Shown one piece after another: positions 3,997-63,719 of a stretch of DNA of 64,000 bases. The DNA lies in the IMG/VR virus record IMGVR_UViG_3300032007_000052, positions 30,033 through 94,032 of that record; one strand, written 5' to 3'. The position numbers and the translations under genes were made by a program. Positions within the stretch are counted from its first letter, which is position 1, and every line of letters begins with the position of its first letter. Below the pieces are notes generated by a model. The model worked only from the letters and a program-made list of their open reading frames with translations. It made no database searches and was not told the DNA's origin. This DNA comes from a virus. Lineage: Duplodnaviria; Caudoviricetes.

Positions 3997-4890
3997 ATGA
4001 CAGAAAATAGTAATATGGTCATGCCGGTAGCACCAGCTTATAATGGTGGTGGATTCGGTGGCGGTTTTGGTTATGGCGGTGATTTTTGGCTTATCCTTAT
4101 TCTGCTGTTTGCCTTTGGTGGTTGGGGCAATGGCTTTGGCGGATGGGGTGGCAATAATGCCGCTGCTGATGGAGCTATCCTTTATCCTTGGATGAATCAG
4201 AGCAATCAGATTCATGATGGCTTCCGTGATCAGATGATTAATACTTCTGTAAATGGAATCCAGAACGCTGTTACAAGCGGTTTTGGTGATGTTCAGCTTG
4301 GCATTGCAGGTATCAATCAGAACATTTGTCAGTCAACAGCAGGAGTAACACAGGCTGTTTCTAATGGTTTTTCACAGGCTGAGATTGCTAATAACACAAG
4401 ACAGATAGCAAATATGCAGCAAGCTTTTGCTAATCAGACAGCAATGAATCAGGGCTTTAACGGTGTTCAGAGTCAGCTTGCTCAGTGTTGTTGTGATAAT
4501 CGTTTGGCTACATCTCAGCTTTCAAACACTGTGCAGAATGAAGGCAATGCTACACGTTTTGCTGATGCAAATAATACAAGAGATCTTATTGAGAATCAGA
4601 ATAGAAATAGTCAGGCTATTCTTGATAAGCTTTGCGCCCTTGAACTTGACGGGGTTAAAAATCAGCTGGCTCAGGCTGAGAGAGATAATATTTCTCTTCA
4701 GAATCAACTTAATATGGCTGCTCTTAGAGAGTCTCAGACTGCTCAGAATGCATTTATTCAGCAGGGATTCACAAACGAAATCGATCAACTCTATAGCAGA
4801 CTATCCAGTTGCCCTATCCCAAGTACTCCGGTATTTGGAAGAACTCCTATCTTTACATGTAACAATGGTGGATGTGGTTGCGGTATGTAA
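3997..4890 (+). CDS. Gly-rich/TM/coiled-coil/Cys-rich hypothetical protein
   Basis: GGFGG repeats, FWLILILLFAFGGWG hydrophobic segment, QLAQCCC, C-terminal CGCG. Confidence 0.75.
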   Translation: MTENSNMVMPVAPAYNGGGFGGGFGYGGDFWLILILLFAFGGWGNGFGGWGGNNAAADGAILYPWMNQSNQIHDGFRDQMINTSVNGIQNAVTSGFGDVQLGIAGINQNICQSTAGVTQAVSNGFSQAEIANNTRQIANMQQAFANQTAMNQGFNGVQSQLAQCCCDNRLATSQLSNTVQNEGNATRFADANNTRDLIENQNRNSQAILDKLCALELDGVKNQLAQAERDNISLQNQLNMAALRESQTAQNAFIQQGFTNEIDQLYSRLSSCPIPSTPVFGRTPIFTCNNGGCGCGM

Positions 4891-10095: not shown

Positions 10096-11280
10096 TCAGT
10101 ATTTTAATTTCAAGGGTCCCGGCCCACTTGCTAGTATCAACGGGAATCTAAACGTCAATACATTAGCATATCGTTTTAACCAGCCTGTTTTGACCGTAGT
10201 AGCACGATAAAATGTTTTTGGTATATTTCTACCATAGCAATATACAAATGTCATATAAACGAATTTACACGGTTTGCATGTTTGGATTTCTTCACGAATA
10301 CCTTCAGAAAGTTCCATAGAATTATTTTTAGAAATGTCTTCAGGAGCTTTTTTATTAGATAATTCTTCAAACTTTTCTTCTGATGATTTAATAGAAATTG
10401 AATCATTGACTTTTTCAGATTCGTTTTTAATGTCTTCAATATGCTTTTCTTTTATCTTTTCTTCGCCTTTTATCGACTCTTCGGCTTCTTCTTTTGTTTC
10501 GATAGGCTCAAAAACAGATCTATCATTGCATACTTCTGGGACATCATAACCTTCTTCAGACATCAATCTAATAAAATCTTTACGGGCTTCGTTTATGATT
10601 TCAACCTTCTCAGGATTTTTTATAATCTTGAGAAGGTTTTCGTCAATATATTCGTGAGCAGTTCTATAATTTCCTTTAAAGCTGCCGGCTCCTAAACCAA
10701 CATAAGGAAGAATTATATAATTCAACCCGTCACGTTTATAAACCTGAAAAATATAACCGTATTTTTCAAACTGATAACCTTCATTGCATGAAACGGTTCT
10801 TTTTCCACGTACAGTCATGGAATACACTTGACATTTTTTATATTTTGGTGCAGTTTCGGCTTCGATTTTTTCAATTCCGTAACATGATAGTGCATCGTTC
10901 ATTTTTACAAGCTTATTGACAAATGTATCAATAGCTTTTCTGATATCCGCGTCAAGTTTAGGATCATATAAGCTTTTTAATTTCATTAACTTTTTAACGG
11001 TTAGCGAATAAAACTCATGTATCAAATCAGCTGCGGCAGATCCTTCATCACTCATGTTTAAAATTTCAACGAACTTTTTAAAGTCGGAAGTGCTCCAGGC
11101 TTGCATAGCAGTATATAGATTGATTTTAAAATGTCCGCATCTGTCTGGAGTCGGGTGGTAAGTCAAATCAATGTTTATGGCTTCGTGGTCGACTTCTTCC
11201 CCTTTGTCCAAATAAAAATCCATCAAAGTTTCATAAAGAGCATGTCTTATTACATCCTTTTTATTTTTGTAAATCTTCAT
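10096..11280 (-). CDS. hypothetical protein (leftward early block)
   Basis: 394-aa ORF with RBS. Confidence 0.6.
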   Translation of the reverse strand: MKIYKNKKDVIRHALYETLMDFYLDKGEEVDHEAINIDLTYHPTPDRCGHFKINLYTAMQAWSTSDFKKFVEILNMSDEGSAAADLIHEFYSLTVKKLMKLKSLYDPKLDADIRKAIDTFVNKLVKMNDALSCYGIEKIEAETAPKYKKCQVYSMTVRGKRTVSCNEGYQFEKYGYIFQVYKRDGLNYIILPYVGLGAGSFKGNYRTAHEYIDENLLKIIKNPEKVEIINEARKDFIRLMSEEGYDVPEVCNDRSVFEPIETKEEAEESIKGEEKIKEKHIEDIKNESEKVNDSISIKSSEEKFEELSNKKAPEDISKNNSMELSEGIREEIQTCKPCKFVYMTFVYCYGRNIPKTFYRATTVKTGWLKRYANVLTFRFPLILASGPGPLKLKY

Positions 11281-12927: not shown

Positions 12928-13474
12928 TGCGTTTTCTCCTTTTTAATTGATTTTATAAAATTCTGATTTGTTTTCTGTTTTTCCTTCAAGGCAGGCGCCG
13001 CAAAAAATATAGTTGCTGTTTTCTTCTTTAAAAGTTAGATATATAGTACCTTCTTTTGTGTAGCCGTATGGCTCGGATGTCTGAAAAATCTTATAAAAAT
13101 ATAACGGCGGTACACAATTAATCAAGTTTTCAACGACATCCATTTTGACAAAATCACCGACGCGGGCGGAATCATAAGTAAAAAAATCTTGAGAAAATAT
13201 TGTTTTACCGTCTTTTTCTGTGTTTTGTTCCGGTTGTCTTTCCGGATGTTCTGGTGTAAAATACCAGGAATCAACTTTTTTAATAAATAAAATATCATCT
13301 TTGTGTGTGGCCTGATATCTTTTTTTGAAAAGCTCGGCGGCCTCGATGCTTAAAAACTCATTTTGCGATGCGGATAATTCAAAATCTTTATATTTATAAA
13401 AAACTTTAAAAACTTTCATATTAAAACCCTTTCTATATATGCCGGAGGCGGTCAACCTCCGGCGCGTGGAAAAA

Positions 13475-29547: not shown

Positions 29548-29810
29548 CTCACTAATACCCACGGGCAAGCCCGTGGGGTTGTCTGACAACCCGGAGTGAG
29601 TAGCCTGAGTGAAGCCTATTGGCTGAACTACGTTAAGAGAGAATATATAGTTACCTACGGATGTCGTACCAAGTCTGTAGCTCTAAGGTCTGTGATTAAA
29701 CAGTCCTGTGGTATAGGGACAGTGTTGCTGATACAAAACCTCTCATTAACATTGGCGATGGTACACTAACCGCTCTTCGGAGCGAGTAATTAAACCTTTA
29801 TGGTTTTGGA
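29548..29810 (+). ncRNA. IscB omegaRNA scaffold
   Basis: ctcact/agtgag stem, tagcc..ctacgtt, ttaaacagtcct, aacattggcgatgg blocks; similar to 34611-34875. Confidence 0.85.
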
Positions 29811-29824
29811 AAGGGGAATACGTA

Positions 29825-31099
29825 ATGGTTTACGTACTTGATCAAAACGGACAGCCTTTAATGCCTACGGAAAACCATGCTAAAGTGCGTGTTCTTCTAA
29901 GGCAAGGTAAGGCAAAAGTAATAAAGAAATGTCCGTTTACAATACATCTGTTATATGGTAGTACAAACTACACACAAAAAGTGACTTTGGGTGTAGACAG
30001 TGGAAGCAAGCATATCGGTATTTCAGCAACTACAAAAGACAAAGTTCTTTACGAGGCCGATGTGGAACTTCGGAGTGATATTGTGGATCTGCTTTCTACC
30101 CGTAGGGAATTAAGAAGTTTAAGACGTAATCACAAGACCCGTTACCGCAAACCACGATTCGATAACCGCAAACGTAAAGACGGATGGTTAGCACCTTCAG
30201 TAAGGCAGAAAGTAGATTCTCACTTAACGATGATAGCAAAAGTACATAAGATACTTCCAATATCAAATATCGTAGTAGAAGTAGCCTCTTTCGATATACA
30301 GAAGATCAAAAATCCAACTGTCAGCGGTACAGACTATCAGCAGGGTGAACAGCTAGGCTTTTGGAACGTCAGGGAATATGTTTTATTCCGTGATGGTCAT
30401 GTATGCCAATGCTGCAAAGGCAAGTCCAAGGATAAGATCTTAAATGTTCATCATATAGAAAGCCGTAAGACTGGTGGCGATGCACCCAACAACCTCATAA
30501 CGTTGTGCGAGACCTGCCACAAGGGTTATCACAAAGGAACAGTAAAACTTCCCAAGGCGATACACAGAGGGATGTCATTCAAGGATGCTGCGTTCATGGG
30601 TATCATGCGATGGGCTTTGTATGAGAAACTTAAGACCATATACCCGGACGTAAGGCCTACATACGGATACATCACTAAGAATACACGTATAGAAAACAAT
30701 TTATCAAAAGACCATTATGTAGATGCTCGTTGTATCAGCGGCAATCATAATGCAGTCAGCAATGGCGAGGTTTTCTATTATAAGAAAGTCCGCTGTCATA
30801 ACAGACAGATACATAAAAACACTATTCTTAAAGGTGGATATCGAAAACGTAATCAGGCCCCATACGAAGTAAAAGGGTTCAGATTATATGATAAAGTCCT
30901 TGTTAAAGGACAGATAGCTTTTGTTTTTGGCAGACGAACTGATGGGAGATTTGCTATCCGCAAATTCGACGGAACCAAGATTAATGAGCAAATGTCATAC
31001 AAAAAGATTAGACTTATAGAACCACGAAAAAATTTCATTTGTGAAAGGAGGACGCCGCTCCTCATCGGGGCAAGCCCCGACGTTCCCGCGGCTGTTTAA
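29825..31099 (+). CDS. iscB: IscB RNA-guided endonuclease
   Basis: PLMP, LGVDSGSK, RRxxRR bridge helix, VEVASFD, HNH (HHIESRKTGGDAPNNLITLC), HYVDA. Confidence 0.96.
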   Translation: MVYVLDQNGQPLMPTENHAKVRVLLRQGKAKVIKKCPFTIHLLYGSTNYTQKVTLGVDSGSKHIGISATTKDKVLYEADVELRSDIVDLLSTRRELRSLRRNHKTRYRKPRFDNRKRKDGWLAPSVRQKVDSHLTMIAKVHKILPISNIVVEVASFDIQKIKNPTVSGTDYQQGEQLGFWNVREYVLFRDGHVCQCCKGKSKDKILNVHHIESRKTGGDAPNNLITLCETCHKGYHKGTVKLPKAIHRGMSFKDAAFMGIMRWALYEKLKTIYPDVRPTYGYITKNTRIENNLSKDHYVDARCISGNHNAVSNGEVFYYKKVRCHNRQIHKNTILKGGYRKRNQAPYEVKGFRLYDKVLVKGQIAFVFGRRTDGRFAIRKFDGTKINEQMSYKKIRLIEPRKNFICERRTPLLIGASPDVPAAV

Positions 31100-34028: not shown

Positions 34029-34313
34029 ATGAAATTCGAATGGGATGAAGTCAAAAATCAAAAAAATATAGTAAAACATGGAGTATCATTTGAAGAGTCC
34101 AAAACTGTGTTTTTTGATGAGCAAGCGTTGTTGGAATATGATGAAATTCATTCAGAGAATGAGGACCGTTTTCGTATTCTAGGATGTAGTGATGGTGGAA
34201 ATATACTTCTTGTAGTATATTGTGTTCGAGTAGGATCAATAATTCGCATAATTTCATCAAGAAAAGCTACTGATTATGAAAAAAAAGGTTATGAAAGGAA
34301 TATTGTACTATGA
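34029..34313 (+). CDS. brnT: BrnT-family toxin
   Basis: FEWDEVKN..N..KHGVSFEE, EDRF, IRIISSRKAT. Confidence 0.92.
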   Translation: MKFEWDEVKNQKNIVKHGVSFEESKTVFFDEQALLEYDEIHSENEDRFRILGCSDGGNILLVVYCVRVGSIIRIISSRKATDYEKKGYERNIVL

Positions 34314-34540
34314 AAGAAAATGATGAATTTTTAGAAAAGGAATTTAATTTTGACAAAGCCATAAAAAATCCATATGCTAAAGAATTAAAAAAGCAGATTA
34401 CCATAAGGATTCCATTTAATGTAATTGATTATTTTAAAAACGAATCCCATGAAACTGGTGTTCCTTACCAGACACTGATTAACTTATATTTAATTAACTG
34501 CGTTAAAGAAAAGAAAAAATTTAATATGAACTGGGTATAA
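34310..34540 (+). CDS. brnA: BrnA-family antitoxin
   Basis: KNPY..LKKQITIR...IDYFK...GVPYQTLIN. Confidence 0.9.
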   Translation: MKENDEFLEKEFNFDKAIKNPYAKELKKQITIRIPFNVIDYFKNESHETGVPYQTLINLYLINCVKEKKKFNMNWV

Positions 34541-34610
34541 AGAAAAAGACTAGCTGCTAACTATACGACGGTTAGAAATAATTTGAAAGATTATTGTGAC
34601 AAGGCAACAT

Positions 34611-34875
34611 GTCAATGACCCATCACTAAAGTGACGGGCTTGTGTTTAAGCTACTACATAGTGGCATCAAGCCCGATATTGACTAGCCTAAGTTCTGTGA
34701 GAACTACGTTACCTACAAATATATAGTCACCTACGGATGTAGTACCAAGTCTGTAGCTCTGAGGTATGTAATTAAAAGTCCTGTTGGGTAGGGACGGTGT
34801 TACATGTATAAAACTGTAGGATAACATTGGCGATGGTACACTAACCACTCTACAGAGTGAGTATTTATTAAAAAG
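34611..34875 (+). ncRNA. complete omegaRNA followed by an ~8-codon iscB stub
   Basis: gtcaat..gggctt..aagccc..attgac stem, tagcctaag, ctacgtt, aacattggcgatgg; RBS aaggag then ATG 34891 MVFILNDD. Confidence 0.85.
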
Positions 34876-34924
34876 AAAGGAGCACATGTAATGGTTTTTA
34901 TTTTAAATGATGACAGACGTATCG

Positions 34925-35092
34925 GTTTTGTACCCTAGTAAAATCAACTGGTTGTAAAACACAGAGATATTATAATTAAATTGTATGCCAGTTTTGTACC
35001 CTAGTAAAATCAACTGGTTGTAAAACTTGAACAATGGCAAGAAGGAAGAAAACTTAGTTTTGTACCCTAGTAAAATCAACTGGTTGTAAAAC
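34925..35092 (+). CRISPR. CRISPR mini-array: 3 identical 36-bp repeats, 2 x 30-bp spacers
   Basis: GTTTTGTACCCTAGTAAAATCAACTGGTTGTAAAAC at 34925, 34991, 35057. Confidence 0.95.
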
Positions 35093-35290
35093 CTCAAAGC
35101 TTAGTCTAAGTCTTTAATGACTACGTTACCTGTAAATATATAGGCACCGTGGAATGTTTAGCCTAGTTCCACGCTCTGCGGTTGGTGATTAAACAGTTCT
35201 TGAGGGTATGGAACAGTGTTGCCAACATTAAACTACAGGATAACTTTGACGAAGGCTACATTACCGCTTTTAGCGAGTTATTAATTTTTA
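35093..35290 (+). ncRNA. 5'-truncated omegaRNA fused to the last CRISPR repeat
   Basis: tagtctaag..ctacgttacc..ttaaacagttct..aactttgacgaagg present; first guide-adaptor stem absent. Confidence 0.8.
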
Positions 35291-35307
35291 GAAAAGGATT
35301 TAACTTT

Positions 35308-36558
35308 ATGGTCTATGTACTGAATAAAGACGGACAACCCATAATGCCTACACAAAACCATGCTAAAGTGCGTGTGCTTCTAAAAAACAACAAGGCGAGG
35401 GTTATAAACAGATGTCCGTTTACAATACAGCTTTTATACGAATGTGATAATCAGACGCAGCCTGTATCTCTTGGTATTGATGCAGGAAGCAAACACATTG
35501 GTATATCCGCAACAACAGAAAGTAAGGTTCTTTACGAAGCGGATGTTGAACTAAGGAATGATATTGTTGATTTACTTTCTACAAGACGCGAGGCCCGCAG
35601 GACAAGACGTAACAGAAAGACACGTTACCGCAAACCAAGATTTAATAACAGGGTTTCAACTAAAAAGCAAGGCTGGCTTGCACCTTCAATAAAACAGAAG
35701 ATCCAGTCTCACCTTACGGTTGTTGACAAAGTAAACAAAATACTTCCAGTATCTAAAACAACAGTTGAAGTTGCCTCTTTTGACATTCAGAAGATAAAGA
35801 ATCCTGGCATCAAAAATACAGATTACCAGCAGGGCGAACAACTTGGCTTTTGGAACATTAGGGAATACGTAATGTTCCGTGATGGCCATGTGTGCCAGTG
35901 CTGCAAAGGCAAATCAAAGGATAAAATACTTAATGTGCATCATATTGAAAGCCGCAAGGTTGGTGGTGATGCGCCGAATAATCTTATAACATTATGTGAG
36001 ACCTGTCATACAGGTTATCACAAAGGAAAAATAAAACTTCCTAAAGAAATAAAACGTGGTATGAAGTTTAAAGATGCTACCTTTATGGGTATTATGCGTT
36101 GGGCTTTCTATAATAAGTTAAAAGAATTATACCCTAATGTTAGTTTGACCTATGGGTATATCACAAAAAATACACGCATAGTAAATGGTCTTTCTAAAGA
36201 ACATTTCATTGATGCAAGATGTATAAGTGGTAATCCTAATGCGTCATCTGATGGCATAGTTTATTATCAAAAGAAAGTAAGATGCCACAACAGACAGATA
36301 CACAAACAAAAAATATTAAAAGGTGGAATACATAAGCTTAATCAGGCTCCTTATAAGGTTAAGGGTTTTAGACTTTTTGACAAGGTTCAGTACCAAGGGA
36401 ATGATTATTTTATTTTTGGAAGACGTTCAAACGGATTTTTTGACATCAGAACATTAGATGGCATAAAAGTTAATAAAGGTAGTTTATCTTATAAAAAGAT
36501 AACACTTTTAGAGATGTCACAAAGTTTTCTAACAGAACAAAGAAAGGTAATAGCATAA
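35308..36558 (+). CDS. iscB: CRISPR-associated IscB
   Basis: PIMP, LGIDAGSK, VEVASFD, intact HNH, HFIDA; true start MVYVLNKDG after RBS aaagga. Confidence 0.96.
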   Translation: MVYVLNKDGQPIMPTQNHAKVRVLLKNNKARVINRCPFTIQLLYECDNQTQPVSLGIDAGSKHIGISATTESKVLYEADVELRNDIVDLLSTRREARRTRRNRKTRYRKPRFNNRVSTKKQGWLAPSIKQKIQSHLTVVDKVNKILPVSKTTVEVASFDIQKIKNPGIKNTDYQQGEQLGFWNIREYVMFRDGHVCQCCKGKSKDKILNVHHIESRKVGGDAPNNLITLCETCHTGYHKGKIKLPKEIKRGMKFKDATFMGIMRWAFYNKLKELYPNVSLTYGYITKNTRIVNGLSKEHFIDARCISGNPNASSDGIVYYQKKVRCHNRQIHKQKILKGGIHKLNQAPYKVKGFRLFDKVQYQGNDYFIFGRRSNGFFDIRTLDGIKVNKGSLSYKKITLLEMSQSFLTEQRKVIA

Positions 36559-36625
36559 CCGATAAAGCGATCCTCTCACGATTGAAATCGCGAGTCTCCG
36601 CGCGTGGTAAGCCAAAGGGTTTTTT

Positions 36626-54798: not shown

Positions 54799-54981
54799 AT
54801 GGCACGACCTAAAAGCGATAACGTACAAATCAACATTTCCATACCTTCTGAGTGGAAAAAAGAACTTGAAAACCTTGCACGTATTTATTCCGTTGAAGAA
54901 GGTAAAACCATAACTTTTCTTGACCTGATGCGTAGGGGCATTCAGGAAAAATATCAGTTAGGAGTAAAGGGCAATGAATGA
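54799..54981 (+). CDS. ribbon-helix-helix regulator
   Basis: QINISIP.EW..EL...A, T..DLMRRGI. Confidence 0.7.
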   Translation: MARPKSDNVQINISIPSEWKKELENLARIYSVEEGKTITFLDLMRRGIQEKYQLGVKGNE

Positions 54982-55387
54982 AGAGCAATATCATAGTGCT
55001 TCGCATTGCAAATATCTGATACAGTACCACATTATATGGTGTCCTAAATTTAGATTTTCAGTATTAAAAGGTAATGTTGAAGATACACTCAAGCTGATAC
55101 TTCAAAAAATCTGCAATGATTATAATTATCGTATTAAGGCACTTGAAGTAATGCCTGACCATATACATATTTTCATAGATGCCCCACAGACTGTTGCACC
55201 ATGTGATGTTGTCAGAACTCTTAAAAGTATCAGTGCAATAGAACTATTCAGGGCGTTTCCGCAGCTTAAACAATTCTATGCAAGATGTGGCGTTTTGTGG
55301 TCAAAAGGATATTTTGTATCAACAGTAGGGCATATAAGCGAAGCTACGGTAATTAGGTACATTGAGGAGCAGAAAAATCATGATTGA
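54974..55387 (+). CDS. tnpA: IS200-family Y1 transposase
   Basis: YHIIWCPKFR, MPDHIHIF (HUH), LWSKGYF, YIEEQ. Confidence 0.96.
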   Translation: MNEEQYHSASHCKYLIQYHIIWCPKFRFSVLKGNVEDTLKLILQKICNDYNYRIKALEVMPDHIHIFIDAPQTVAPCDVVRTLKSISAIELFRAFPQLKQFYARCGVLWSKGYFVSTVGHISEATVIRYIEEQKNHD

Positions 55388-56990
55388 TGGAGAATACAAG
55401 AAGATTCTGAAACAATATCATAAACTTTCTGGCAGGCATATTTTAGTCGCTGAGACTGATATGCCTTATTCTGATGTGCTTAAGATTGTGATCCTTTCTG
55501 ATAAAATCCGCAAGGCAGGCAATGAACTTGTTGGTCTTATGAGAAAGAATTATGATCAGCTTTTTCGAACAAAGAGGTATCGCAAACTATTATTCCTTTA
55601 TGGCAACACAGGAGATAAAGTTAAACGCAAAATTCTTGCTAATCAGCTTAATGAAATGCAGAAATCCTATAATGTCACATGGGATTACTGTAGAAAATCT
55701 ATGATTCCAATAGGCAAAAAGTATGGTGTCGATGCTGTCTTTGCTCTAACCAAAGCCGAAGATGTTTGGCATGGTGTGGAAAAATGTCTGTATGGTAATG
55801 GCAGGACCATACATTTTTCAAAATATGGAGAACTGCCTTGTATCCGAGCAAAACAAATAAACCGTGGTATTCCTATATCCGTAAAAGATAATAGATTGCA
55901 GTTCAAACTTGGAAAGACAACTTTCGGGATACAGGCAGATGACAGGTTTCAAACAGACGAAGTAAATGCTGTTTTAGCTTATCTTGCTGAACCTGAGATT
56001 ATGGATAAAAAAGCTGTTAATACACTCATTGAAGATGCCTATTGTGTAGATACATACAGACCTTGCTATGCCACACTCGTTCCCAAAATGATAAGGGGTA
56101 AATACCGAGTATATTTACACTTAACTATTGAAGGTAAGGCGAAACCGAAATACGATAAATATGGCAATCTCCGTCATAAATACGGCAAAGGTATGATAGG
56201 TGCGGATATTGGCACTCAGACCATTGCCTACACTTCTAATATAGAGGTAGGGTTGAAGAACCTTTCGGAGCGTGGCAATAGTATACAGACTTCCGAACGG
56301 AAAGAACGTCTGCTCTATCGAGCTATGGACAGGTCAAGGAAAGCAACCAACCCACAGAATTACAATGATGATGGTACTGTAAAGAAAGGTCATAAGACTT
56401 GGAAATATTCAAATCATTATAAGAAACTGAGAGCCAGACATTCTGAATTATGTCGCATCAATGCTGTAAACAGAAATCTTGCAATAAAAGAGGATGTAAA
56501 TCACTTGCGGAGTCTTGGAGATGTATTTGTTACTGAGCCTAAAAATGCAAGTAAGCTCATGAAGCGAGCCATAAAAACCACTAAGAATTACAAGGGTAGA
56601 TTTAACAGGAAAAAGCGGTTCGGTAAATCCATAAAAAACAGATGCCCCGGAGGTTTTCAGTCAAATGTAGAGAAGAAATTCAAAGCCACAGGTGGCACAT
56701 ATATAGAAGTCCCGAATAACTACAGGGCTTCGCAGTATGACCATACAGCAGATGACTATATAAAAAAGAAGCTGTCCGACAGATTGTTTAAACTACATGA
56801 TGGTACTGAAGTACAGAGAGATTGGTATTCATCGTTCTTACTATACTGCTATGATCATATGACACATGATATAGATAAAAATAAATGCAATACAAAATTT
56901 GAGGAACAATACAACAGAGAAAAAGCCTTAATCACTTGGATTAAGGCTAATAAACTTAAAATATTAAACAGTGGAATTAAAATAGCTTAA
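55380..56990 (+). CDS. tnpB: large TnpB-family nuclease
   Basis: RuvC GADIG / VTEP / QRDWYSSF all retain acidic residues. Confidence 0.85.
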   Translation: MIDGEYKKILKQYHKLSGRHILVAETDMPYSDVLKIVILSDKIRKAGNELVGLMRKNYDQLFRTKRYRKLLFLYGNTGDKVKRKILANQLNEMQKSYNVTWDYCRKSMIPIGKKYGVDAVFALTKAEDVWHGVEKCLYGNGRTIHFSKYGELPCIRAKQINRGIPISVKDNRLQFKLGKTTFGIQADDRFQTDEVNAVLAYLAEPEIMDKKAVNTLIEDAYCVDTYRPCYATLVPKMIRGKYRVYLHLTIEGKAKPKYDKYGNLRHKYGKGMIGADIGTQTIAYTSNIEVGLKNLSERGNSIQTSERKERLLYRAMDRSRKATNPQNYNDDGTVKKGHKTWKYSNHYKKLRARHSELCRINAVNRNLAIKEDVNHLRSLGDVFVTEPKNASKLMKRAIKTTKNYKGRFNRKKRFGKSIKNRCPGGFQSNVEKKFKATGGTYIEVPNNYRASQYDHTADDYIKKKLSDRLFKLHDGTEVQRDWYSSFLLYCYDHMTHDIDKNKCNTKFEEQYNREKALITWIKANKLKILNSGIKIA

Positions 56991-63176: not shown

Positions 63177-63719
63177 GTTTGAGACGGTTGAAATTTAACA
63201 AGGTTCTCAAACATTTTATGCGCATTTACAAAAAGGCATCCAGTTTGAGACGGTTGAAATTTAACAAGGTTCTCAAACTTTAGTAGCAATAATTGCAGAG
63301 CAGTTAATGTTTGAGACGGTTGAAATTTAACAAGGTTCTCAAACATGATATAGATGAAGTGTCAAATATATTTGTTTGAGACGGTTATAATTTAACAAGG
63401 GTCTTAAACATGAGATAAGTGATCCTGACAGAACTGATAAGTTTGAGACGGTAGTAAAATGCAAGGTTTTCAAACTCGGTTAGGTGCTCAACGAAGAAGG
63501 TCTAGTTTGAGACGTGTGTAAAAAGACAAGGGCCTCAAACTGGCTTACAGGATTTGATGTTTCATTCCTTGTTTGGGATAGATTACAAGGTTCTCAAACA
63601 GGTGCGGTTATTCTTTTTGCAAAAATGCAAGGCCTCAAACAAGGATACTTATTTAATTATAGATAGCCAGTTGGTTGAGTTAGGCATCAAACTGTAAGAA
63701 GGTGTTTTAGGCATCAAAC
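63177..63719 (+). CRISPR. CRISPR array: 36-bp repeats, 29-31-bp spacers, degenerating rightwards
   Basis: GTTTGAGACGGTTGAAATTTAACAAGGTTCTCAAAC at 63177, 63243, 63309; variants at 63374, 63441, 63505, 63571; remnants ending tcaaac at 63640, 63692, 63719. Confidence 0.95.

Follow-up and report, generated by a model that had tools for sequence, protein, structure and literature searches.

The window analysed here comprises the last 64 kb (64,000 nucleotides, nt) of a complete phage record in IMG/VR (IMGVR_UViG_3300032007_000052; 94,032 bp with 112-bp direct terminal repeats, 35.7% G+C), and it holds, between positions 34,611 and 36,625, an IscB (OMEGA) element in which a CRISPR array runs directly into a guide RNA scaffold. 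We consider it probable, judging from the sequence and its relatives, that this element is a composite: a short array of type II-A style has been joined to the scaffold at its 5′ end, and the product works in the manner proposed below. The phage is of rumen type, and its hosts are probably Lachnospiraceae or Butyrivibrio-like bacteria. Along the plus strand, the brnT/brnA gene pair is followed by a complete omegaRNA (omegaRNA 1), an IscB stub, the array, a 9-nt linker, the body of a second omegaRNA (omegaRNA 2) and an iscB gene whose product we name IscB-B (Table 1). An earlier note, made from the letters of this stretch, had described a CRISPR-fused IscB on a phage, with a full omegaRNA, an array of three repeats and two spacers, an omegaRNA without its first stem and an intact IscB; all of these parts were recovered with RF02033, exact repeat copies and Pfam, and the carrier is indeed a phage.

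Table 1. Features of the composite element and of related genes in the window (L086 is a sister locus described in the text; RBS, ribosome-binding site)
Feature	Position	Strand	Basis
Flank-derived guide of omegaRNA 1 (inferred)	34591..34610	+	adjoins HEARO model position 1 on the 5′ side
omegaRNA 1, complete canonical HEARO-type scaffold without an IscB of its own	34611..34890	+	RF02033
IscB stub	34891..34938	+	RBS, ATG, 15 codons, TAG inside repeat 1
CRISPR mini-array, 3 repeats/2 spacers	34925..35092	+	exact copies
Linker CTCAAAGCT, 9 nt, repeat 3 to nexus	35093..35101	+	sequence
omegaRNA 2 body, nexus to RBS, without its own first hairpin	35102..35307	+	RF02033
IscB-B, 416 aa, catalytic motifs intact	35308..36558	+	Pfam RRXRR, HNH; OgeuIscB homology
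Probable right-end region, imperfect hairpin	36559..36625	+	L086 homology stops at 36578; boundary approximate
Second, canonical IscB element (omegaRNA 29548-29770, IscB-A 29825-31099)	29548..31099	+	HEARO 105 bits, Pfam
IS200-type Y1 transposase TnpA	54974..55387	+	PF01797 1.7e-38 and 2.4e-37

We propose the following working. Transcribed rightwards, the element would yield an RNA that covers both omegaRNAs, the stub and array between them, and iscB. In this RNA, repeat 3 would replace the guide adaptor hairpin: it would fold back on itself, or else its first bases would pair with the linker's AAAGCU. The 3′ part of spacer 2 would then be the guide of a ready-made single guide RNA, with which IscB-B would cut DNA beside a target-adjacent motif. 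OmegaRNA 1 would be an orphan canonical scaffold with a flank-derived guide, to be loaded by IscB-B or by IscB-A, the nuclease of the second element.

The evidence for the fusion begins with the array itself, which consists of three exact copies of a 36-nt repeat (34925-34960, 34991-35026 and 35057-35092; period 66 nt) and two 30-nt spacers (spacer 1, 34961-34990; spacer 2, 35027-35056). OmegaRNA 2 scores 106.4 bits against RF02033 over 35056-35264 (gathering score 83). The cmscan alignment places model positions 1-40, which form the first hairpin, over repeat 3 with low posterior probability, and high confidence sets in at the nexus (TAGTCTAAG) and continues from there; at the place of repeat 3, some 77 aligned related phage loci have a canonical GTCAA...TTGAC first stem. 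Stem-loop 1 of an omegaRNA is the ‘guide adaptor hairpin’ between guide and nexus stem, and has been equated with the repeat:anti-repeat duplex of Cas9 (Kato et al., PMC9640706); repeat 3 sits exactly at that position. Since repeat 3 stands in the first-hairpin position, spacer 2 occupies the guide position, as the earlier note had read it. Spacer 2 alone is joined to the scaffold: spacer 1 is without one, whichever pairing of the repeat applies.

Another line of evidence comes from two sister loci, which we found by searching for the repeat as an end-anchored pattern. Among 185,579 species genomes, the pattern occurs only in JAILBM010000078.1 (hereafter L086), a 7.4-kb contig of a metagenome-assembled genome of Butyrivibrio sp., and in the JGI metagenomes it occurs in JAEEGL011311129.1 (L087), a 29.7-kb contig; IMG/VR gave no match, either to the pattern or to the exact repeat. 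Thirteen single-copy matches to the pattern in the genome and metagenome collections were rejected as chance, and none has an omegaRNA behind it. L086 and L087 have the same repeat family, linker and scaffold type as the window, and their IscBs are 79-81% identical to IscB-B (L086, 81%). The linker is conserved as C[TC]CAAAGCT in five out of five fused omegaRNAs. The five arrays of the three loci hold 11 spacers of 29-31 nt, no two of them alike, which shows that spacers have turned over between the loci.

The L086 locus contains three tandem modules, each an array with a fused omegaRNA, and the stub lies behind the first two. A promoter that lies just past a terminator serves these modules; it matches the consensus at 12/12 positions and has an extended -10 element. 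Promoters embedded in the repeats were sought as well, and only weak 9/12 matches lie inside the arrays. Furthermore, the first two L086 scaffolds are chimaeric: a body like that of omegaRNA 2 passes into the 3′ end and stub that belong to omegaRNA 1, and the switch points of the two differ. Two unequal crossovers between omegaRNA 2 and omegaRNA 1 of a window-like ancestor would produce these chimaeras. In L087 we also noted two matches to RAGATH-18 RNA (10810-10888 and 13263-13335, minus strand; 60 and 72 bits) and a tRNA.

Such exchanges raise the question of whether the arrangement is a recombination scar. On this view, the headless omegaRNA 2 and its array would be left over from recombination of IscB elements with a CRISPR array of a phage; the spacers would have no guide role, and IscB-B would work through canonical omegaRNAs only, be it omegaRNA 1 or the one belonging to IscB-A. 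That the region is prone to recombination is indeed seen from the stub and from the chimaeras, a complete canonical omegaRNA lies beside the cassette in all three loci, and a scar would also account for a weak repeat hairpin and for spacers with no targets found (see below). On the other hand, the junction of repeat, 9-nt linker and nexus is exact in five modules and three contexts in which every spacer has been replaced. The body of omegaRNA 2 is 85-93% identical to the four other fused bodies (62-74% to canonical ones), and the fused scaffolds score above the Rfam gathering threshold; in L086, moreover, a perfect promoter drives three modules with no canonical omegaRNA upstream. We judge a mere scar to be quite unlikely.

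For the fused scaffold that we favour, two pairings of repeat 3 come into consideration. In the first, the repeat pairs with itself, as the earlier note had seen, through an 8-bp outer stem that includes two G-U pairs and through five inner pairs; over 10 repeat variants, 93% of the cells in this fold are paired, compared with 31-46% in slid controls, and one L086 variant folds more stably than that of the window, at -11 kcal/mol (z -3.1). The second is a 6-bp stem between the last spacer base plus GUUUU (35056-35061) and AAAGCU of the linker; by sequence and cmscan alignment, this stem adjoins the nexus in the manner of the canonical first stem. A long anti-repeat would not fit, because only 9 nt separate repeat 3 from the nexus, and RNAduplex found none when the repeat was set against the bodies of omegaRNA 1 and 2, both flanks and the minus strand. 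One borderline duplex match to the first 12 nt of the repeat (AGGGTATGGAAC, 35195-35206; three G-U pairs) is equalled by 4.5% of shuffles; it lies in a conserved hairpin of omegaRNA 2 and is without covariation in L086. The minimum-free-energy fold of the whole of omegaRNA 2 is uninformative (z -0.4), as is to be expected because the RNA is pseudoknotted.

IscB-B has the properties of an IscB/OMEGA nuclease: it is an RRXRR protein of about 400 aa with a split RuvC and an HNH domain, and a HEARO omegaRNA lies upstream. Its Pfam matches are RRXRR (5e-67) and HNH (3e-8), a phmmer comparison with IscB structures gave 2e-52 (homology to the OgeuIscB chains 11hr, 7utn and 7xht), and the aligned RuvC and HNH motifs GIDAG, EVASFD, VHHIE and FIDARC are all kept. 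About 200 relatives in IMG/VR are 63-76% identical to it; the best 80 were taken for comparison of loci, and none of these 80 has an array fused to its omegaRNA. In a quick maximum-likelihood tree, IscB-B and the IscBs of L086 and L087 form one clade (approximate likelihood-ratio support, SH-aLRT, 97) apart from 45 canonical phage IscBs. The same clade holds six closer database proteins (81-98% identical), the fused context having been read at the three loci. The canonical phage IscBs among which the lineage nests in this tree are 73-78% identical to it, so that it probably represents a separate and recent origin of a CRISPR-associated IscB.

Repeats also occur near canonical relatives of IscB-B. 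One 202-kb phage contig (L031; IMGVR_UViG_3300029316_000227) has two differing mini-arrays (392-500 and 1898-2200), 0.8-2.6 kb upstream of the IscB gene and unfused to an omegaRNA, whose repeats start GTTTTAGAATTG and GTTTTGTAACTG. In a 312-kb viral contig (L052:5930-6031), two exact 36-nt copies stand 66 nt apart, downstream of the IscB gene.

The composite element of the window retains a canonical guide RNA too. OmegaRNA 1 scores 126.7 bits against RF02033 (HEARO) over 34611-34845 (gathering score 83), and its first domain folds at -24.4 kcal/mol (z -3.8). L087 becomes homologous to the window exactly at 34611, and omegaRNA 1 is thus the left end of a mobile unit that also comprises the array, omegaRNA 2 and iscB. 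A flank-derived guide position fits omegaRNA 1; it does not fit omegaRNA 2, where CRISPR spacer 2 holds the guide place. The stub that follows was described earlier as having about eight codons: roughly the first eight are indeed IscB-like, but the open reading frame (ORF) itself, from the ATG at 34891 to a TAG at 34936-34938 in repeat 1, has 15 codons (MVFILNDDRRIGFVP). The same stub (MVFILN..RIGF..) lies behind two fused omegaRNAs of L086.

As to the protein that omegaRNA 1 serves, the canonical element about 5 kb upstream has to be considered: its IscB-A (424 aa) is 73% identical to IscB-B and has a HEARO omegaRNA of its own (105 bits). OmegaRNA 1 may serve IscB-A rather than IscB-B, because it is nearer to the omegaRNA of IscB-A (78% identity) than to omegaRNA 2 (67%); IscB-B may use both RNAs of its element, as the earlier note had proposed. 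OmegaRNA 1 is also 95% identical (blastn, 262 nt) to a standalone omegaRNA of L086, and 90% over the scaffold body from the nexus on. That canonical L086 RNA (reverse-complement coordinates 4504-4765) lies downstream of the CRISPR-IscB, just past a gene with helix-turn-helix likeness, and no IscB ORF stands behind it.

The repeat points to type II-A CRISPR systems. Compared in register, it agrees with type II-A repeats of the host genus at 21-22 of 36 positions (p about 0.007, termini fixed), and the II-A arrays of that genus have 36-nt repeats, 30-nt spacers and leader ends that read ATTTGAG or GTTTGAG before GTTT. A second likeness is to the phage's own two arrays for a nuclease-dead Cas12f (dCas12f), with whose repeats the IscB repeat has 22-27 of 36 positions in common; the 27/36 is to one old, decayed repeat (z 4.1, p 0.0003), and another dCas12f-array repeat has TAGCAAAATTA in common with the repeat variant of L086 and L087. 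Both of these dCas12f arrays (window 63177-63540; genome 158-391) begin with an exact ATTTGAG/GTTT, and their repeats are 25-26/36 identical to those of host-genus II-A arrays and decay away from the leader end. These type V-F arrays of the phage look as if they were built for feeding by a host type II-A adaptation module.

A different source, the first hairpin of the omegaRNA itself, was tried and rejected: the repeat is colinear with this hairpin in cmscan, yet it went unscored by a profile hidden Markov model of 48 canonical first-hairpin 5′ halves. The capture of a II-A-style array that circulates in the phage lineage is the better-supported origin on sequence grounds, because of the identities to II-A-style repeats (host genus and dCas12f array) and the missing first-hairpin score; the earlier note's idea of a captured type II-like array thereby gains support. 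The repeat itself was absent from arrays in 401 genomes of the host family, with up to 3 mismatches allowed.

A repeat of this style might also be taken to mean that the array works for another effector, its CRISPR RNAs (crRNAs) going to a host II-A Cas9 or to the phage's dCas12f, with iscB a mere neighbour. Mini-arrays that viruses carry and that depend on Cas proteins of the host are known, and the format (36 nt, 30-nt spacers, GTTT...AAAC ends) together with the identities just given would suit that assignment. However, arrays of this repeat were found only at the three IscB loci when the 185,579 species genomes, the 401 family genomes and IMG/VR were searched, and in L086 array and omegaRNA have been duplicated as one unit. 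In addition, a repeat identity of 58-75% is too low for a shared tracrRNA (the trans-activating RNA of CRISPR systems), and no convincing anti-repeat lies nearby. That the array serves another effector seems to us very unlikely.

If, as we favour, the array supplies guides to IscB-B, its orientation bears on how spacers are gained. Read on the minus strand, linker and repeat 3 give AGCTTTGAG/GTTTT, which matches 6 of the 7 bases of the group-1 II-A leader end, GAG/GTTT included. This leader end is ATTTGAG/GTTT (PMC5382924), and in the passage of Van Orden et al. that cites Wei et al. (PMC5382924) the last 10 leader nt with the first repeat are enough for adaptation, even outside a CRISPR locus. 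It is on the side away from the scaffold that repeats are decayed: L086 repeats A1 and C0 have 5 mismatches each, and 12-nt repeat relics remain distally in the L087 array and in L086 array A. The whole 94-kb phage contains no cas1 or cas2. The leader-like junction at the scaffold, the decayed distal repeats and this lack of phage cas1 and cas2 suggest that host II-A adaptation proteins (Cas1-Cas2-Csn2) add new spacers at the scaffold-proximal repeat. The working guide would then always be the newest spacer, and older units would decay at the far end.

Several observations weigh against the reading that we have developed. The leader-like motif matches at only 6 of 7 bases and reads TTTGGG in three of the five modules, and it overlaps the putative mini anti-repeat of the linker, so that the two readings of these bases are not independent. 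Every array has three repeats (once four), which is odd for active growth; the phage itself has no cas1 or cas2; and Cas9 is present in only 5 of the 61 host-genus genomes searched. In the window's version, the hairpin of the repeat folds only weakly (-4.8 kcal/mol, z -0.7), and the changes at its pairs 6/31, 7/30 and 8/29 are one-sided and wobble-compatible, with no double compensatory change. No promoter-like site for the window copy was found in 34540-34925, and this copy may depend on read-through transcription. Lastly, the spacers have given no targets: an exact search of IMG/VR with the 22-nt 3′ parts of five spacers found no protospacer, nor did INPHARED (all E at least 0.5), PLSDB or the 61 host-genus genomes, in which the best matches were 19 nt long and at chance level. 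Nor was any seen among about 110 fetched loci. Spacers and flank guide likewise have no other match in the whole 94-kb phage, which extends to the full genome the earlier remark that the spacers have no self-match.

Some of these points would be met by the same effector wiring with another supply of spacers, one without Cas1-Cas2: left-end fragments of the element could capture flanks, arrays could be exchanged or shuffled through their repeats, and upstream spacers would be activated by deletion between repeats. The phage, which has a TnpA and lacks cas1 and cas2, would suit this, as would the constant number of three repeats per array and a slight excess of similar spacer pairs (6/55 with z above 2); irregular omegaRNA-like arrays have also been named as a possible alternative means of guide capture (Altae-Tran et al. 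2023, PMC10691335). The spacers are nonetheless held tightly to 29-31 nt and the repeat to 36 nt, as in the II-A arrays of the host genus; the II-A leader-like junction lies at the scaffold end with decayed repeats opposite, and an exact II-A leader end recurs in the phage's other arrays. We regard this alternative, which leaves the fused guide in place, as unlikely.

CRISPR-associated IscBs were reportedly described before, by Altae-Tran and colleagues in 2021. Arrays have become associated with IscB several times independently, and standalone omegaRNAs act in trans (Altae-Tran et al. 2023, PMC10691335). Because such IscBs have been published and are said to have arisen several times, the element described here is not new in kind. 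As in those systems, an array stands directly upstream of an IscB of about 400-460 aa, in the same orientation, and leads into an omegaRNA-type scaffold with a spacer in the guide place; no adaptation genes are adjacent. In DelIscB, a CRISPR-associated IscB that has been engineered, an anti-repeat in the non-coding RNA pairs with the repeat in a long hairpin (PMC12660989), whereas here the repeat is the hairpin itself or pairs with 6 linker nt. The known examples also differ in that the present element keeps a canonical omegaRNA and an IscB stub, and that its modules have multiplied in L086. What is distinctive here is the hairpin-type repeat that stands as adaptor without a separate anti-repeat, the presence side by side of flank- and array-guided RNAs, the module duplications and the closeness of canonical relatives.

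With canonical IscB/OMEGA systems (OgeuIscB, PDB 7UTN and 7XHT; PMC9640706), the element has in common the protein family, the catalytic motifs and the scaffold from the nexus on; omegaRNA 1 and the element at 29548-31099 are typical representatives of that class. IscB/HEARO genes are known in viruses (PMC9755519). The guide of omegaRNA 2, in contrast, is a CRISPR spacer in place of a transposon flank, and its adaptor hairpin is a CRISPR repeat. The likeness to the type II-A systems of the host genus (loci L115-L119; arrays in L123 and L125) extends to 36-nt repeats, 30-nt spacers, GTTT...AAAC ends, the GAG/GTTT leader-repeat junction and the order of spacer then repeat in the guide RNA. Unlike those systems, however, the element has no Cas9, separate tracrRNA, cas1, cas2 or csn2, its repeat matches at no more than the 21-22 positions given above, and its leader-like junction lies on the strand opposite to transcription. 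Nor does it have the features of type II Cas9: the nuclease is a 416-aa IscB, Cas1/Cas2 are missing and no RNA bearing an anti-repeat was found.

Two groups of neighbouring genes complete the description of the window. Directly upstream of the left end of the element, at 34029-34540, are the genes for a BrnT toxin and a BrnA (CopG-type) antitoxin, and a promoter-like TTGACA-17-TATGCT lies within brnA at 34350-34378. Farther downstream, the 3′ side of the 137-aa TnpA is overlapped by a 542-aa ORF (54974-56990 for the pair) with no Pfam match at E <=0.001; this ORF may be a divergent TnpB/Cas12-like partner, and TnpA itself is a possible mobiliser of the IscB element in trans.

The element bears on how flank-guided transposon nucleases became array-fed CRISPR effectors; for the IscB/Cas9 line, few CRISPR-associated IscBs have been described. 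In the TnpB/Cas12 lineage, TranC systems have been presented as transposon-CRISPR intermediates (Jin et al. 2025, Cell, as cited in PMC13565253). The element described here resembles them as a transposon-type RNA-guided nuclease that stands between flank-derived and array-derived guides; it differs in belonging to the IscB and not the TnpB lineage, and in a scaffold that is unsplit (no crRNA/tracrRNA), with the last spacer alone joined in cis. We tentatively entertain the possibility, which we hold to be less likely than the composite itself, that it is the IscB counterpart of TranC: a very young and independent transition from IscB to CRISPR within phages. A II-A repeat would here have become the adaptor hairpin without tracrRNA or anti-repeat; host II-A adaptation would be hijacked through a leader-like junction on the opposite strand, so that each new spacer, inserted right beside the scaffold, is instantly a single guide RNA; modules would multiply by unequal crossing-over between canonical and fused omegaRNA and thereby provide several guides, and the flank-guided RNA would be kept.

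The early steps of such a transition (the source of the repeat, the replacement of the adaptor hairpin and the supplier of spacers) are directly testable here: canonical relatives stand at 73-78% identity, the old and new guide systems occur together, and the sister loci display turnover and duplication. Tool builders may also take an interest in an IscB of 416 aa whose adaptor measures 36 nt and whose guide RNA is naturally short. The finding further enlarges the picture of the phage, which bears several RNA-guided systems in imitation of the II-A arrays of its hosts: a dCas12f and two IscBs.

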